Below are positions 3,972 through 9,990 of a stretch of 64,000 nucleotides of DNA, one piece after another. Each line of letters opens with the position of its first letter. Position 1 is the stretch's first letter. A program made the translations under genes and the position numbers. The stretch covers positions 4,032,001 to 4,096,000 of the forward strand of contig OZ253462.1 of NCBI GenBank assembly GCA_965261395.1, in the 5' to 3' direction. Below the pieces are notes generated by a model, which saw only the letters and a program-made list of their open reading frames with translations, had not been told where the DNA came from and made no database searches. Source of the stretch: Candidatus Latescibacterota bacterium. GTDB taxonomy: Bacteria; Latescibacterota; UBA2968; UBA8231.

Positions 3972-4067
3972 TGCCAATAAGAGAATTCGTTGGTCTCGCC
4001 GCAGATCGGTTTGAGTTGGCATCTATCGTTCTCCGTCTTGCTTTCACCGAGCCTTAGCCCAGCGGGG

Positions 4068-4625
4068 TCAACGTGCTCGCTCCCGGGCAATCTGCCTGCC
4101 TGCGCCCGTCACGTTTTGACGGTACCGAACGAGATCTACGCTTGCCAAAAAATGGTTGGCAATCTGTTCCTTGGGCATTCCACGGCGTAATGCCCAAAGC
4201 AGACCCTCTCGCGTTATCTGAAGGCAGCCCCCCATGTAGCGCGCCTCTTCTTCCTGCTCGTTGTCATAGCTTCTGAGAGACCCGTTTATCCCTGAGTTGG
4301 CAGCCGGATGTTTGCAGATGATGTGGGCGATCTCATGCATAATATCGCTTTCCTGTCGCGGCCTTGAATGAGTCGAATTGTGGACAATGAATACTCGATC
4401 CTGTTCAGGGATCACCACAGCTCCAGCCGACCACTTTGAGTCGCGATTCGACAACCATCCGGAATGCAATGGATCTAGACCTGGTATTTCATCAGGAGTC
4501 ATTACGTGAATACCAAGGTGCTCAGCAAGGGATTTGGCTGGAAGCGGCTGACTGTCACAGATAGCGAGCGCTTGACGGTAGTCCCGAGCCTGCTGTTCCG
4601 CTTGTGTCTTGAATCCTCGCTTCAT
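4068..4625 (-). CDS. capP: ImmA/IrrE-family Zn metallopeptidase (CapP-like)
   Basis: HEIAH (HExxH) motif preceded by RQES and followed by EEEA; co-oriented 8 bp downstream of an XRE regulator. Confidence 0.85.
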   Translation of the reverse strand: MKRGFKTQAEQQARDYRQALAICDSQPLPAKSLAEHLGIHVMTPDEIPGLDPLHSGWLSNRDSKWSAGAVVIPEQDRVFIVHNSTHSRPRQESDIMHEIAHIICKHPAANSGINGSLRSYDNEQEEEARYMGGCLQITREGLLWALRRGMPKEQIANHFLASVDLVRYRQNVTGAGRQIARERAR

Positions 4626-4633
4626 GGAATGCC

Positions 4634-4996
4634 CTATATCTCACCCCGTTTGCCCGCGTCATAGAGCGCTCGGAACGCCGCCGACAGCGCTTGGACGGTC
4701 TTGGGCGGAAGTTCACGATCTGCGCGCAGATGCGCCTCAACTACGTCGGGCGTGCTGACGGCCCTCGCTGAAGGGGTTACATCGGCGATTCCTTCCGTAA
4801 ACTCATCAGGTGAAAACCCAAGCCATTGACAAAGGCGAAGAAACGAAGCCAGATCCGGGAGCCTACCCGCCTCAACTCGCGACAATGTGGAAGCGCTAAT
4901 GCCCCCGATTTCTTTTGCTGTCTCCCGTAAGCCCTTATTTTCTCTCTTCTTACGGATTTCAACGGCCAACTTTCTCACGTCGATGGTCTCGGTCAT
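4634..4996 (-). CDS. capH: XRE-family HTH repressor (CapH-like)
   Basis: LRETAKEIGGISASTLSRVEAGRLPDL helix-turn-helix plus a C-terminal AHLRAD..L oligomerisation-like segment; divergent from the Ubl operon. Confidence 0.8.
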   Translation of the reverse strand: MTETIDVRKLAVEIRKKRENKGLRETAKEIGGISASTLSRVEAGRLPDLASFLRLCQWLGFSPDEFTEGIADVTPSARAVSTPDVVEAHLRADRELPPKTVQALSAAFRALYDAGKRGEI

Positions 4997-5064
4997 CGCT
5001 AGCCTCCTCCTGTTTCTTTGTCTTCAAGATAATCAAATAGTCTCATCCGCGAAACAAAAACCAC

Positions 5065-5125
5065 TTGTGCAACGATATTGAAGTTGCTATATTCCCTCTT
5101 GCGACGCGTTGCATGTGTGCAACGA
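5065..5125 (+). promoter_or_regulatory. Sigma70-type promoter and candidate CapH operator sites
   Basis: TTGTGC (5065-70), 17 bp spacer, TGc-TATATT (extended -10, 5088-93). Palindrome CGTTGCA-N4-TGCAACG at 5107-5124. TGTGCAACGA occurs at both 5066 and 5116. Confidence 0.65.
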
Positions 5126-5154
5126 CACCTACTCCTTCGGAGGAATAAGAGATC

Positions 5155-5343
5155 ATGCCCAAGGTATTCAAGCCAGGACAGGACGCACCGGCATCAGGTC
5201 AATACGAGGAAATCGGACCTCGTGATGGAAAAACAGGCCATGAGGTGACATCCAACAAGGGACAGCCATTGCCACCGACTCGGGGACCGGGGCGGAGCTA
5301 CATCCTTGTAGACCGGAGTCGAAACAAGTCTGGGAGGGGATGA
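5155..5343 (+). CDS. YjzC-family small protein
   Basis: KPGQDAPASGQYEEIGPRDG...GQPLPPT signature; GGAGG RBS upstream. Confidence 0.8.
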   Translation: MPKVFKPGQDAPASGQYEEIGPRDGKTGHEVTSNKGQPLPPTRGPGRSYILVDRSRNKSGRG

Positions 5344-5393
5344 TTCCAGCGCATTCTTAAGGGGAGCCTATTCATATTCATAAGGAGAGACAA

Positions 5394-5927
5394 ATGGATA
5401 CTGCTATCGACAAACAAAATTTCGCGGACGAAATCGTGGATATTGAGATTTTCACGGCTGAGGGCAGGAAAGTTCCCGACTACTGTAAAGGCTACCTGAT
5501 CCGCATAAATGAGCAGAAGTATATCGTGGAGAAACCTACGGTGACTCGTGAGGAGGTAGTACGAATTGCCAAGTTTGATCCATCTGAGGATGCCTGTGTC
5601 CGCGTCTACATACATGGATCGAGGCCCCGAGTGCTCCAGCCGGGCGAAGAGGTTGACCTGACCTTACCGGGCATTGAGCACTTCCAAGTAGACAAGGAGT
5701 GCATCGTCAAGGTGAAGGTGAACACCACGACCTTTGAACTCGCAGTCCCGACGACCGGTAAGAAGGTAAAGCAGGCCGCTATTGAAGCTGGCGCGAAAAT
5801 TGAGCTTGACTTCGTTCTCTACTTGGAGCTCAAGGACGGGCCGCCGGAGCAGATTGATGACGACGAGGTAGTGTTCTTAGATGAGGGTGCCTGTTTCAAC
5901 GCTGTGTCGGGCGACGACAATTCCTAG
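5394..5927 (+). CDS. Multi-ubiquitin-domain protein (two beta-grasp domains; BubA-like Ubl)
   Basis: Two repeats of the pattern [IV]x[IV]N...T[RG]xx[VI]...E.V.L..G..F; C-terminus SGDDNS; directly upstream of E2 and E1 genes; AGGAG RBS. Confidence 0.8.
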   Translation: MDTAIDKQNFADEIVDIEIFTAEGRKVPDYCKGYLIRINEQKYIVEKPTVTREEVVRIAKFDPSEDACVRVYIHGSRPRVLQPGEEVDLTLPGIEHFQVDKECIVKVKVNTTTFELAVPTTGKKVKQAAIEAGAKIELDFVLYLELKDGPPEQIDDDEVVFLDEGACFNAVSGDDNS

Positions 5928-5930
5928 ACG

Positions 5931-6338
5931 ATGGCACTCAAACCCGCAGTTGAAGAGGCCATCAAGGACCTACAAAAAGCCTTCCCGGAGTCTGTTGTTA
6001 GTCCTACTGAAGATGGTCAAGGCGGAGCCCACATAGTGATCGAACCAGTACCGCTCGATACCCAAGTCTTCGTCCACAGCGAGACTTGGGGCGGATTCGA
6101 CCTGAGCTTCAACCTCCCGTATGCCGATGTCTATCCGATTTACGTCCGGTCGGACCTCGCCCGGCGCGATGGTCGGGAACTCAGGGATACAAGCGAAGGC
6201 TTGCACCCCGACCAGAGTTTCCAAGGCCGCTCCGCCTTGATGCTTTCCCGTCGCTCGAACAACCGCGATCCTGAGCACGACAAGCCCCACTTGAAGGTGC
6301 TCAGGGTTCTCGAATGGCTAAGGAGGTGGCCGGGGTGA
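5931..6338 (+). CDS. Prokaryotic E2-like protein (BubB-like), no cysteine
   Basis: UBC-like pattern F.L...LPYADVYP.YV followed by LSRRS; sits between the Ubl and E1 genes; the 135-aa product has no Cys. Confidence 0.7.
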   Translation: MALKPAVEEAIKDLQKAFPESVVSPTEDGQGGAHIVIEPVPLDTQVFVHSETWGGFDLSFNLPYADVYPIYVRSDLARRDGRELRDTSEGLHPDQSFQGRSALMLSRRSNNRDPEHDKPHLKVLRVLEWLRRWPG

Positions 6339-7765
6339 CCGATTTCGACCTGATTCTGCCGGCAAAACTCAAGAGCGACCTCTTTGCTCATCTCTTTCCC
6401 GGAGATGGCGACGAACATGGGGCCATAATCTCTGCCGGTGTCGTACATACTGATAGGGGCCTTCGACTTCTAGCTCGGGATCTGTTCTTGGCCGAAGACG
6501 GGGTCGATTACATTCCCGGAGAGCGTGGCTATCGAATGCTCACACCACGCTTTGTGATGGAAAAATCCCTCAATTGTCGGGACCAGAAGCTAGCATACTT
6601 GGCTATACATAATCATGGCGAAGGGGAGTCCGTCAGTTTTAGCGATGTGGACCTTGCTTCGCACGAACGTGGGTACCCCGCTCTGGTGGACATCTTGCAG
6701 GGACAGCCCGTTGGAGCCCTCGTTTTCGCTAGATATGCGGTCGCTGGAGATCTCTGGCTTCCAAGTGGTGGGCGTACCACGCTGCGAGAGGGTAGAGTTG
6801 TAGGAGGCTCCATCGAGTGCTTATATCCAAACCCGCCGCCGGCTCCTCCAAGTGTAGATTTGACCTATGATCGGCAGGCACGGCTCTTCGGTGACCGAGG
6901 GCAATCGCTCCTCAATGACGCAAAGATAGGAATCATCGGTGCTGGAGGCGTGGGGGCTCTCCTAGTGCTCTATATGGCCCGTCTCGGGGTAGGCCACATG
7001 GTCGTTGTGGATCCAGACCGCATCGACATCACCAATCTTTCTAGAGTCCCTGGTGCTACGCGCTTCGATGCAAGGACTTGGCTCACCGCAGGGGGGCGGC
7101 CTGAGTGGCTCCAAAGCTTCGGGCGTCGAATCTCTGCCCGCAAGGTGGACATTATGCGGCGTGTTGCCCGCCGAGCCAACCGGGATATTTGGTTTGAGGG
7201 CATCTTCGGAGATGTCGTGGATGACGCCGTAGCGATGCGGTTTAGAGACTGCGATTTCCTATTTCTGGCTGCGGATACCCACCAAGCAAGGCTCGTCTTT
7301 AACGCGCTCGTTCACCAGTACCTCATTCCTGGTGTTCAGGTTGGCTCCAAAATCTCTGTCGATAGGGCCTCTGGCGAGATTAATGACGTGTTTTCGGTCG
7401 TGCGTCCAGTCATTCCAGATTCTGGATGCCTTTGGTGCGCGAAGCTCATAGATCCGGCCCGTTTGGCGGAGGAATCGCAGCCAAAAGAGGAACGAGAGCG
7501 TCAGAGTTACATTGAGGAAGTTCCTGCACCGAGCGTAGTGACGCTGAATGGTATCGGTGCGAGCCATGCTGCCAATGAGTTTCTTTTTTCTTGGACTGGA
7601 CTTAGGCTTCCGGTCTCTGAGGAACTGTACCTATACTACCAGCCACGGGAGCGAAAGGGAATGATGCCAAAACCTTTACGTAAGGATGCCTGCACAGAGT
7701 GTGGGATAGGAACGGAAAGCCGACGGGCACGTGGCGACAGCACAGATCTACCGACACGGTGGTAG
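6335..7765 (+). CDS. JAB/MPN peptidase - ThiF/E1 adenylyltransferase fusion (BubCD-like)
   Basis: N-terminal E...HNH-x8-SDVD JAMM motif; YDRQ, GAGGVG, DPDRIDITNLSR, AAD, and Zn pairs CLWC and CTEC. The GTG start overlaps the E2 stop (GTGA) and has an AGGAGG RBS. Confidence 0.9.
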   Translation: MTDFDLILPAKLKSDLFAHLFPGDGDEHGAIISAGVVHTDRGLRLLARDLFLAEDGVDYIPGERGYRMLTPRFVMEKSLNCRDQKLAYLAIHNHGEGESVSFSDVDLASHERGYPALVDILQGQPVGALVFARYAVAGDLWLPSGGRTTLREGRVVGGSIECLYPNPPPAPPSVDLTYDRQARLFGDRGQSLLNDAKIGIIGAGGVGALLVLYMARLGVGHMVVVDPDRIDITNLSRVPGATRFDARTWLTAGGRPEWLQSFGRRISARKVDIMRRVARRANRDIWFEGIFGDVVDDAVAMRFRDCDFLFLAADTHQARLVFNALVHQYLIPGVQVGSKISVDRASGEINDVFSVVRPVIPDSGCLWCAKLIDPARLAEESQPKEERERQSYIEEVPAPSVVTLNGIGASHAANEFLFSWTGLRLPVSEELYLYYQPRERKGMMPKPLRKDACTECGIGTESRRARGDSTDLPTRW

Positions 7766-7891
7766 GTGCTGAGAAATACGAGCCGATCAAGGATGAGATC
7801 AACTCAATTATAACTGACCTAGCCGTAGCTTGACTGACCAAAGTTCTTCGATTACATACAATAACAGTCGCGGTGAGAAAGGACGGCAACC

Positions 7892-8440
7892 ATGGTCATC
7901 CCCAATCCCATAGTCAAGTTTACCTACGAAGACTACCTGAATACGCCGGAAGATAAGCGCTACGAGCTCCTAGACGGAGAGTTGGTTATGACCCCTGCCC
8001 CCGGAGAACTTCATCAGAGCATTTCCATCCTGCTAGGATCGGAACTGTTTCAATTCGCATCTGAGAATAGCTTGGGGCGGGTCTATCAGGCTCCCTTCGA
8101 CGTGGTGCTATCGGATGTGGACGTGGTGCAGCCTGATCTACTGTTCGTCTCCAATGAGCGCGGCCACATCATCACTCCCGCGAACATTCAGGGCACGCCG
8201 GACTTGGTCGTCGAAATCCTATCCCCCTCCACAGCCGAACGCGATAAGACATTCAAGCGCACGCTATATGCCAAGCACGGCGTGAACGAATACTGGATGG
8301 TGGACACTACCGAAAAAGACATAACAGTCCTGCTACTCGGTGAGCGCGGATACGAGGTCGTGGATACCTACGTCGAAGGAGAGACATTGACTTCGCCGAC
8401 CTTGCAAGGCTTCAGGCTGCATATCGGCGACCTATTTTGA
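7892..8440 (+). CDS. Uma2 (DUF820) family PD-(D/E)XK endonuclease
   Basis: YELLDGEL, VQPDLLFV, PDLVVEILSPST..RD...K...YA..GV.EYW.VD. Confidence 0.92.
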   Translation: MVIPNPIVKFTYEDYLNTPEDKRYELLDGELVMTPAPGELHQSISILLGSELFQFASENSLGRVYQAPFDVVLSDVDVVQPDLLFVSNERGHIITPANIQGTPDLVVEILSPSTAERDKTFKRTLYAKHGVNEYWMVDTTEKDITVLLLGERGYEVVDTYVEGETLTSPTLQGFRLHIGDLF

Positions 8441-8462
8441 GCGCCTCAGGCTGGAGGTTACA

Positions 8463-8699
8463 ATGCCAAGGGTCAGCAGCATCCAAGGGCCATATCGGTT
8501 CTTCTTTTACAGCTTTGACTGTCATGAACCTCGGCATGTGCATGTCAGAAGAGAAAAAAGAACATGCAAATACTGGCTTGAACCCATTGCATTGTGCAAA
8601 AATTACGGATTCTCTCCCCATGAACTGAATGGAATTCGGCGGTTGATCCAATCGAACTACGTGATAATTTTGGAGGCTTGGCGTGAACACTGTGAATAA
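8463..8699 (+). CDS. DUF4160 family protein (putative toxin-antitoxin component)
   Basis: YRFFFYSFDCHEPRHVHV motif; overlaps the DUF2442 gene. Confidence 0.85.
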   Translation: MPRVSSIQGPYRFFFYSFDCHEPRHVHVRREKRTCKYWLEPIALCKNYGFSPHELNGIRRLIQSNYVIILEAWREHCE

Positions 8700-8949
8700 T
8701 ACGGAACCTCGCATCAAATCCATCAGGATTACTGAGGACTTGATCATCGCTGACTTGTTCGACGGTCGAACAATCAGTGTGCCACTCGTTTGGTCTTGGC
8801 GACTTTCCGATGCAACACCCGCTCAGCGTGAAAACTATGAATTTATCGGCGATGGGCAGGGCGTTCACTGGCCGGATATCGATGAAGACATCAGTGCAGA
8901 AGGCATGTTGATGGGCACACCTGCACAGCCCGCTAAACAGCGTGTGTAA
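8683..8949 (+). CDS. DUF2442 family protein (putative toxin-antitoxin component)
   Basis: DGRTISVPL.W..RL..AT..QR...GVHWPDIDEDIS signature. Confidence 0.88.
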   Translation: MNTVNNTEPRIKSIRITEDLIIADLFDGRTISVPLVWSWRLSDATPAQRENYEFIGDGQGVHWPDIDEDISAEGMLMGTPAQPAKQRV

Positions 8950-8991
8950 CTCAATCTGTAGCGGGGCTGGTGCTGGTCAGCGAAAGTAATC

Positions 8992-9990
8992 CTACAACTC
9001 CACCCGCCTCCCACTGCGGGCCGACTCAAAAGCCGCCTCGACCACTCTGAGCGTGCCGTCGGCATGGTCGGCCATATAGGCGGGAGTCTCTTCTCCGCGC
9101 AGACATTGCTGGAAAAAGTCAATGGCCGGCTGGAAAGGCGGCGTGCCGGTCTGGAAGGTCTCGCTGCGGTTCTCATTGGAGCCGCTGACCACGTCAAAAC
9201 TGCTCTCCGCGCCGGGATGGTACGGGGAGGGTACAACCAGTCGGCCTTGGTCTCCAGTGATGAGGGCATGAGGCCCGCCGCGACCATCGAAACCGCAGTA
9301 CAAGGTTGCGGTGAGGCCGTCGGGGTATTCGAGGATGAGCGAGGTGGCCACGTCCACCCCGGCTTGCGCGTCAAAGCGCATGTGCGCCTGAACGCTAACC
9401 GGGTCGGTGCCAGCGATGAAGCGCGAAAAGGTGATGGGGTACGCGCCGCCGTCGTAAATGCTGCCGCCGCCCAACGCTTTAATCAGGCGGATGTTGCTGG
9501 GGTCGTCGATGAAGTAGGTCATGCCGGCGTTAATGTGGCGCAGGGTGCCGATTTTGCCGGCGGCGATGATTTCCTTGAGACGGCGGCTTTGGGGATGGTG
9601 CATGAAGACAAAGGCCTCAAAGAGCAGCACGTCGGCCTTGTGGCAAGCCTCGACCATTTGCCGGCCTTCGGCCGCGGTGACGGCGAGGGGTTTTTCGCAA
9701 AAGACGTGTTTGCCGGCCTCGGCGGCTTTGATGGTCCATTCGGCGTGCAGCGAATTGGGCAGCGAGATATAGACGGCGTCGATGTTCGGGTGGTCGAGCA
9801 GGGCTTGGTAACTGCCCAGCGCCACAGGGATATCGTGGTCGCGGGCAAAGGCATCGGCGGTGTCTTGGCTGCGGCTGGCCACGGCATAGACTTGGGCACC
9901 GGGCGTGGCGCGGGCCGAGGGAATGAAGGCGGTGACGCCGATTCTGGCGGTGCTGAGGATGCCCCATTGGATGGGTCGTGAACTGGTCAT
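8992..9990 (-). CDS. Gfo/Idh/MocA oxidoreductase
   Basis: WGILSTARI, AGKHVFCEKP, GGGSIYD.G.Y. Confidence 0.92.
   Translation of the reverse strand: MTSSRPIQWGILSTARIGVTAFIPSARATPGAQVYAVASRSQDTADAFARDHDIPVALGSYQALLDHPNIDAVYISLPNSLHAEWTIKAAEAGKHVFCEKPLAVTAAEGRQMVEACHKADVLLFEAFVFMHHPQSRRLKEIIAAGKIGTLRHINAGMTYFIDDPSNIRLIKALGGGSIYDGGAYPITFSRFIAGTDPVSVQAHMRFDAQAGVDVATSLILEYPDGLTATLYCGFDGRGGPHALITGDQGRLVVPSPYHPGAESSFDVVSGSNENRSETFQTGTPPFQPAIDFFQQCLRGEETPAYMADHADGTLRVVEAAFESARSGRRVEL

Follow-up and report, generated by a model that had tools for sequence, protein, structure and literature searches.

A three-gene ubiquitination-like operon is encoded in a stretch of 64,000 nucleotides from a Candidatus Latescibacterota bacterium (GCA_965261395.1, contig OZ253462.1, positions 4,032,001 to 4,096,000 of the forward strand). 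This whole stretch is called the window here. The operon contains the genes for a ubiquitin-like protein (Ubl), an E2-like protein, and a JAB peptidase fused to an E1. The Ubl ends in Asp-Asp-Asn-Ser (DDNS) rather than in Gly, and this end appears to be its functional terminus. The gene order in the window is CapP-like and CapH-like on the minus strand, followed by a YjzC-like open reading frame (ORF), Ubl, E2, and JAB-E1 on the plus strand (Table 1). The system is compact, with three genes and two regulators.

Table 1. Positions of the operon genes, the conserved Ubl end, and the adjoining regulators in the window
Feature	Positions	Strand	Details
CapP-like ImmA/IrrE (Peptidase_M78) regulator peptidase	4068..4625	-	Pfam PF06114 E 8.1e-13; PADLOC capP E 7.5e-5
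CapH-like helix-turn-helix (XRE-type) repressor, divergent from the Ubl operon	4634..4996	-	Pfam HTH_3 E 7.8e-9
Small YjzC-like ORF, 62 amino acids, between regulator and Ubl	5155..5343	+	Pfam YjzC E 5.5e-7, 30.2 bits (cut-off 25)
Ubl ORF, Multi_ubiq protein of 177 amino acids	5394..5927	+	Beta-grasp domains ~10-100 and 103-171; tail 172-177
Codons of Asp174-Asp175-Asn176-Ser177, conserved C-terminal motif	5913..5924	+	Logo of 78 representatives and 24 near homologues; loci
E2-like protein, BubB type, 135 amino acids	5931..6338	+	No Cys; putative catalytic Ser106, with Arg107, Asp66, and Tyr68
JAB/JAMM peptidase (~1-170) fused to ThiF-type E1 (~185-483), 483 amino acids	6314..7765	+	Pfam, phmmer

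The Ubl ORF and its Ser-terminal end are real. The C-terminus reads CFNAVSGDDNS, and the stop codon TAG is at 5925-5927. The Ubl contains no Lys after K147, so its tryptic remnant would be about 30 residues long. An AGGAG sequence lies about 8 nucleotides 5' of the ATG. The protein matched Pfam Multi_ubiq (PF14452) in two stretches with an E value of 8.1e-18 and 64.8 bits (cut-off 24.5). The AlphaFold2 model, made from a 44-row alignment, contained two beta-grasp domains. Its mean predicted local distance difference test score (pLDDT) was 93.1, and its predicted template modeling score was 0.83. The final strand was residues 167-171 (CFNAV), and the tail was residues 172-177, so Gly173 lies 2 residues past the last strand and Ser177 lies 6 past. 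The best Foldseek matches of the model were the bacterial multi-ubiquitin structures 9cd2, 9d59, and 8u38 (E 3.6e-8 to 1e-6), with di-ubiquitin and ISG15 ranking after them. PADLOC has no model covering the Ubl or the E2. A preliminary description of this DNA had claimed that the Ubl ends in AVSG-DDNS without GG, that the JAB is fused, and that Gly173 leaves a very short tail and Ser177 a ubiquitin-length one. The ORF translation bears out the first claim, the JAB-E1 reading frame the second, and the AlphaFold2 model the third.

The JAB-E1 fusion matched Pfam ThiF with an E value of 1.1e-27. It also matched Citrobacter BubCD (9ea4), a protein of the bacterial ubiquitination-like (Bub) systems, with both domains covered (phmmer, E 2.6e-22). 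The JAB residues E34, H99, H101, S110, and D113 were invariant in seven homologues. The same seven kept the adenylation residues R244 and D321 and the crossover-loop residues Q397 and Y399, and Y399 aligns with BubCD Y370. They also kept C372, C375, C460, and C463, of which Cys372 and Cys375 sit at the start of the crossover region. The two Cys pairs probably form a structural zinc site. A longer JAB-E1 of 647 amino acids was seen in a metagenome locus (L008:2871-4814). It carries a hydrophobic-rich C-terminal extension of about 165 amino acids and looks membrane-anchored.

The E2 sequence had no match in Pfam or the PDB. In an alignment of 11 sequences, S106 and R107 were invariant and Asp66 was near-invariant. 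In an hhalign comparison, the protein aligned with the E2 part of BubAB fusions (97.2%, E 3.5e-11), and Ser106 fell on the Ser of WSRH. These fusions are true Type I Bub proteins, since their profile matches Citrobacter BubB with an E value of 7e-38. The AlphaFold2 model of the E2 (pLDDT 87.9) matched Citrobacter BubB best (9eae_C, E 1.5e-4, template modeling scores 0.70/0.73), above classical UBC enzymes. The Ubl and E2 genes of the window share a frame and are separated by only the TAG and one codon. A programmed Ubl-E2 fusion by TAG read-through was considered and rejected, as among 12 distinct loci the two genes share a frame in 3, the number expected by chance. The spacing in other loci ranges from a 17-nucleotide overlap to a 15-nucleotide gap by ORF coordinates.

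Conservation of the tail was assessed in two sets of homologues. The near set contained 26 near homologues from a word-indexed protein search. The broad set was retrieved with HMMER from 1.84 billion cluster representatives (E <= 0.001), and the best 150 of 256 relatives were used. Each representative stands for a cluster at 50% identity. Residues 100-177 of the Ubl were compared by phmmer with 175 proteins, which gave 121 domain hits reaching the domain end. The same type of terminal tail was found in 102 proteins, comprising 78 representatives and 24 near homologues (window Ubl included). Where this type of domain lies inside a multi-domain protein, the motif is missing (19 of the 121 domain hits did not match).

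The end of the tail was fixed, and the Gly173 position was not. Among the 78 representatives, the position of Ser177 was Ser in 76 and Ala in 2. The Asn176 position was Asn in 56, His in 7, Asp in 6, Lys in 4, and another residue in 5. The Asp175 position was Asp in 72 and Glu in 6, and the Asp174 position was Asp in 70, His in 5, and Glu in 3. The Gly173 position was Pro in 22, Asp in 18, Gly in 14, Asn in 14, and another residue in 10. None of the last 6 tail positions held a conserved Gly in the 78 representatives. The protein ended exactly at the terminal Ser or Ala in 68 and ran on for 2-5 extra residues in 7. The Ubl was fused through DDNS into the E2 in the other 3 (P0063, P0157, and P0175). 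A DDNS-type end recurs in all 78 representatives and in all 29 other loci with a readable tail. The recurrence is far beyond chance. The pattern of stops and extensions at the Ser matches that at the reactive Gly of ordinary Ubls. A fixed terminus with a few short extensions or fusions points to a reactive end that needs exposure, not to a discarded propeptide.

Ser ends after other tails were also seen in the Multi_ubiq family. Representatives P0064, P0102, P0170, P0107, and P0135 end in Ser after tails of the G-G-x-x-S type or in V-S. The Ser terminus may thus be more widespread within the family.

The reach of the tail fits Ser177 better than Gly173. The reactive Gly of Type I BubA lies at +10 from the conserved last-strand aromatic (Citrobacter 9d59 and the BubAB fusions). 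Ser177 lies at +9 and Gly173 at +5. A complex of two copies of E1(170-483), ATP, and Ubl(100-177) was modeled and scored 0.77 (runs 0.77/0.84/0.77), and the best of three controls scored 0.01. Of 157 solved complexes, 116 reach the mark used for such models, as do 2 of 215 mismatched pairs. Contacts agreed at >=90% between runs, and the pLDDT of the partner was >=86. Ubl residues 171-177 were all in the E1 interface. The E1 side includes 209, 211-214, and 318-321, which belong to the nucleotide loop 209-214 and to the segment 318-321 around Asp321. A pass of this kind shows likeness, not binding, and it may reflect a similar complex that has already been solved (BubCD-BubA, 9ea8).

We read the DDNS tail as the mature functional end of the Ubl, with a probability of about 0.6. 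Ser177 would be adenylated directly, with a relay via Tyr399 and Ser106, and the JAB would trim or deconjugate. The preliminary description had leaned toward direct activation of Ser177, and this lean is well supported by conservation, tail geometry, and the complex model. The Ubl would be made with its reactive terminus already exposed. Docking would occur between its C-terminal beta-grasp domain and the ThiF-type domain of JAB-E1, bringing the tail of six residues to the ATP site. The alpha-carboxylate of Ser177 would then be adenylated. By analogy with Bub, the acyl group would pass to the E1 crossover-loop Tyr399, then to Ser106 of the Cys-less E2, in both cases as an oxyester, and finally to lysines of targets. 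The JAB would not clip at Gly173. It likely cuts after the Ser in relatives with an extended or E2-fused Ubl. It likely also removes conjugates, since operons of the DDNS type lack the BubE protease. CapH probably holds expression off, and CapP would release it upon DNA damage.

To our knowledge, every well-studied Ubl conjugation system activates a C-terminal Gly, which is the textbook rule of E1 chemistry. Canonical Ubl systems use a C-terminal Gly and Cys thioesters. An E1 review can be cited for both features (PMC12355090). The window system resembles the canonical pairs of Ubl and E1 (ubiquitin, NEDD8, SUMO, and ThiS/MoaD) in the predicted docking of a beta-grasp domain, whose flexible tail runs into the ATP site, on an adenylation domain of the ThiF fold. 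It differs from them in that the conserved terminus is Ser and the E1 and E2 nucleophiles are predicted to be Tyr and Ser.

Type I Bub is among the closest known systems. It encodes BubAB, a Ubl-E2 fusion that the JAB cleaves behind a conserved Gly, together with the DUF6527 protease BubE (Ye et al. bioRxiv 10.1101/2024.11.21.623953). Like Type I Bub (PDB 9ea4, 9ea8, 9eae, and 9eav), the window encodes a JAB peptidase fused to an E1, and the JAB residues, the adenylation Arg, and the crossover-loop Tyr are shared. The E2 is likewise of the BubB type, lacks Cys, and has a putative catalytic Ser-Arg. Both systems also have a Multi_ubiq Ubl and CapH/CapP regulators. CapH/CapP regulators are reported with 168 of 544 Bub operons (Ye et al. 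bioRxiv 10.1101/2024.11.21.623953). The Ubl part of Type I ends in TEG and is paired with a WSRH E2, whereas the window class ends in DDNS and is paired with an SR[RK] E2. The window Ubl and E2 are encoded by separate genes, and fusions are minor in the DDNS class (3 of 78) and run through DDNS. Unlike Type I, the DDNS class does not have a His next to the E2 Ser, its E1 keeps four invariant Cys, and no DUF6527 or BubE was found at any DDNS locus examined.

The search for DUF6527 covered loci L002-L018, L025-L028, and L032-L040 and found none, using phmmer with the single host BubE and/or Pfam searches of the larger flanking ORFs, from which a very divergent copy could escape. None was found anywhere in the whole genomes G001, G049, and G051. 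The published Bub catalogue lists "DUF6527-containing operons" in the header of Table S1 (Ye et al. bioRxiv 10.1101/2024.11.21.623953). A class without BubE is missing from it because DUF6527 was the seed of the catalogue. Bacterial ubiquitination-like systems are therefore more diverse than has been documented.

The only DUF6527 gene of the host genome is about 268 kb away, within a complete Type II Bub operon. This operon (G000:C1 ~3762744-3764672; L019:5744-7672) encodes a BubA of 106 amino acids ending in Ser, an E2-E1 fusion (DUF6791 and ThiF), and DUF6527. Long frames overlap on both strands just 5' of it. The host Type II BubA (L019:5744-6064) aligns end to end with 9cd2_A, its terminal Ser falling on Ser222, the final residue of that chain. 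The same Type II type of Ser tail was found in three representatives (P0075, P0096, and P0110).

Type II BubA (E. coli ZDHYS365, 9cd2) is like the window Ubl in being the product of a stand-alone gene, in having Ser as its last residue, and in having an acidic residue two positions before it. It was also the top structural match of the window Ubl (Foldseek E 3.6e-8). It differs in its tail, which is of the T-x-T-D-K-S type rather than D-D-N-S and is one residue shorter past the last-strand aromatic. Type II Bub also differs in having an E2-E1 fusion (BubBD) without a JAB, plus BubE, whereas the window has a separate E2 of 135 amino acids and the JAB on the E1. E. coli BubA-BubA conjugates formed in vitro need ATP, E1/E2, Arg219, Tyr342, and Ser106, and the proteins of that preprint were N-terminally tagged (Ye et al. 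bioRxiv 10.1101/2024.11.21.623953). A Ser-terminated Ubl, E. coli Type II BubA, has thus very probably been activated in vitro already. There is a precedent for the Ser terminus inside the superfamily, because 9cd2 ends in Ser and E. coli BubA was conjugated in vitro. The preliminary description had called activation of a non-glycine terminus highly unusual chemistry, and on this evidence that wording was overstated.

The gene order of the window was described earlier. In the "6e" operons, a separate gene for an E2-like protein stands between those for the polyUbl and the JAB+E1 protein (Iyer, Burroughs and Aravind 2006, PMC1779556), the same order as in the window. They differ in that they encode a Zn-finger protein (later DUF6527), which was not found here. 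The matching passages of that paper contain no word on the C-terminal residue. Neither DDNS nor a Ser terminus is mentioned in the text available for two Bub preprints, PDF supplements and published version apart. A literature search for C-terminal serine, ubiquitin-like, and adenylation in bacteria returned nothing relevant. The window system belongs to the Bub family as a variant that lacks BubE and has a Ser-terminated Ubl, and it is related to Type I Bub. As a category it is not new.

Several points weigh against direct activation of Ser177. Adenylation of a Ser terminus is a prediction for the DDNS class and is stated in no text found, as far as the sources were available. The link to Type II Bub is drawn from the sequence of a PDB chain and a preprint assay rather than from anything the authors state directly. 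The complex model names no E1 residue that touches Ser177, and its inclusion of ATP is outside the calibration. The His beside the catalytic Ser of Type I BubB is not kept in the E2, where position 108 is R, S, or I in the 11 aligned sequences. The invariant Cys372 and Cys375 of the E1 lie in the crossover region, where BubCD is described as having no Cys, and they may have a catalytic role. The Cys-less E2-like domain of the 6e operons was deemed catalytically inactive and RWD-like (Iyer et al. 2006, PMC1779556).

The last of these points also favors a system in which the Ubl is not conjugated via its C-terminus. The acidic DDNS tail would then serve in docking or regulation, or the adenylate would be used for sulfur transfer, cyclization, or AMPylation, and the E2 would be an inactive adaptor. 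The CxxC...CxxC signature of the E1 resembles sulfur-pathway enzymes, and the DDNS operons have no known target or phenotype. The available text on Bub reports that no phage protection was found for Bub operons (Ye et al. bioRxiv 10.1101/2024.11.21.623953). However, the homologous Bub enzymes conjugate through Tyr and Ser, and the equivalents Tyr399 and Ser106 are invariant here. The intact JAB and the natural Ubl-E2 fusions through DDNS (P0063, P0157, P0175, and L005) make sense only if a Ser terminus must be freed. We consider a non-conjugating system unlikely. A different reading keeps conjugation and places the reactive residue within the tail. The JAB or Asn cyclization would remove Ser or Asn-Ser, and Asn176 or Asp175 would be activated. 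Asn is the commonest residue at the position before Ser (56 of 78). MccB chains were among the PDB matches of the E1, over the Rossmann segment 197-245 only (E 3.5e-5 to 4.5e-5). MccB is an E1-fold enzyme that adenylates the C-terminal Asn of the short peptide MccA to yield a nucleotide antibiotic, which this reading loosely recalls. The MccB system does not have an E2, a JAB, or a beta-grasp substrate. Unlike substrates of the MccB/PaaA type, the window substrate is a folded beta-grasp protein of 177 amino acids with an E2 present, and its Asn is penultimate and variable. In 22 of 78 the Asn position is instead H, D, K, S, Y, V, or T, which argues against Asn-specific chemistry. The Ser is better kept than the Asn (76 versus 56 of 78), the stop codon comes right after it in 68 of 78, and residue 177 is in the modeled E1 interface. 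Processing within the tail is quite improbable.

The preliminary description had also offered a conventional reading, in which the JAB clips after Gly173, the E1 activates a C-terminal Gly, and DDNS is a propeptide that is discarded. In its favor, the JAB keeps its active-site residues. In Citrobacter Type I Bub, the JAB cleaves BubAB behind a conserved Gly (Ye et al. bioRxiv 10.1101/2024.11.21.623953). At the Gly173 position, the 24 near homologues most often have Gly (G 16, D 5, P 2, A 1), but Gly is present in only 14 of the 78 representatives, where Pro, Asp, and Asn are as common or commoner. The description had named an invariant Gly173 followed by a variable tail as the pattern that would speak for clipping, and the logo gives the reverse (Gly 14/78, Ser 76/78). 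The supposed propeptide is fixed in length and sequence and the supposed reactive residue is variable, opposite to what discarded propeptides show. Gly173 also lies only 2 residues past the last strand and 5 short of the position of the Type I BubA reactive Gly. Clipping after Gly173 is rejected as highly improbable.

Direct activation of Ser177 would have consequences beyond this operon. The glycine rule would not be general, and the E1 pocket of the clade would show how a side chain is accommodated. The clade is defined by an invariant acid-acid-x-Ser terminus and contains at least 78 clusters at 50% identity. Its members pair with enzymes homologous to the oxyester-using E1 and E2 of Bub. 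They are spread over cyanobacterial, actinobacterial, alphaproteobacterial, and Deinococcus plasmids, a Latescibacterota metagenome-assembled genome (MAG), and the window's own phylum. Tentatively, a C-terminal Ser could be the standard reactive end in much of Multi_ubiq/Bub, in Type II BubA as well as in the DDNS class. A third Bub type would then be formed by the DDNS operons, with three genes, no BubE, and the fused JAB as sole peptidase. The Ser side chain could have its own function, such as tuning the oxyester relay or making conjugates that resist Gly-specific phage deubiquitinases.

The same module was found in other genomes. It was retrieved from one Latescibacterota MAG and 16 metagenome contigs (17 loci). 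The tail was acid-acid-x-S/A in all 16 loci where it was readable. In one of the loci the Ubl runs on into the E2 (L005), and in another it is cut by the contig end and the tail is unreadable (L017). The E2 was located in 14 of the 17 loci and the E1 in 12. The module also occurs in four further genomes of the window's phylum, where every Ubl ends in AIAADDNS. Nine plasmids from Mesorhizobium, Rhizobium, Mycolicibacterium, Rhodococcus, Nostoc, and Deinococcus also encode it, with a DDNS end in 8 and a HEDS end in 1.

The regulators accompany the operon in many of these loci. CapP homologues lie beside it in 6 of the 17 metagenome and MAG loci by phmmer, in 2 more by Pfam, and in 6 of the 9 plasmid loci by annotation. 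CapH-like ORFs adjoin it in 12 of the 17 loci (phmmer) and in all four genomes of the same phylum. In these four genomes (L025-L028) the CapH-like gene is 3' of the E1 on the same strand, and phmmer detected no CapP-like gene. The window has a perfect palindrome between CapH and the Ubl at 5107-5124, with 7-base arms and a 4-base spacer. One arm is repeated at 5068-5074 (by eye). The palindrome may be an operator for the CapH-like repressor.

The small YjzC-like ORF has one other copy in the same position, on a Nostoc linckia plasmid (L038:3431-3619; phmmer E 1.9e-14, Pfam E 0.0083). No homologue was found in the remaining loci. It is a possible accessory gene.

The DDNS module is mobile and of the island type. 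The guanine-cytosine content is about 63% in the flanks and 51-57% over 4000-9000. The E2 is present in 5 of 168 genomes of the window's phylum and in none of 30 others of the same genus. The region 3' of the E1 (7892-8949) encodes a Uma2-family putative endonuclease (PADLOC candidate PDC-S03, E 1.9e-41) and a DUF4160/DUF2442 gene pair. These genes fit a defense- or mobile-island setting, and they are not conserved with the operon at other loci. No gene is conserved 3' of the E1. The neighbors vary by locus and include Fic, a kinase with a tetratricopeptide repeat protein, AbiEii, and transposases.

A protein of about 500 amino acids is encoded beside the DDNS operon in three lineages (L011:2689-4203, L025:9917-11386, L026:10140-11663, L027:4789-6312, L028:2883-4448, and L032:4452-6041). 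It shares 22-48% identity between lineages and has no homologue in the window. The four of six copies that were scanned had no Pfam match. It may be an optional partner or target.

The closest relative among the genome contigs is in the Latescibacterota MAG (L002:6001-6538). Its Ubl gene is frameshifted into pieces of 156 and 49 amino acids, and the second piece ends in DDNA. This split may be an assembly error or a pseudogene.

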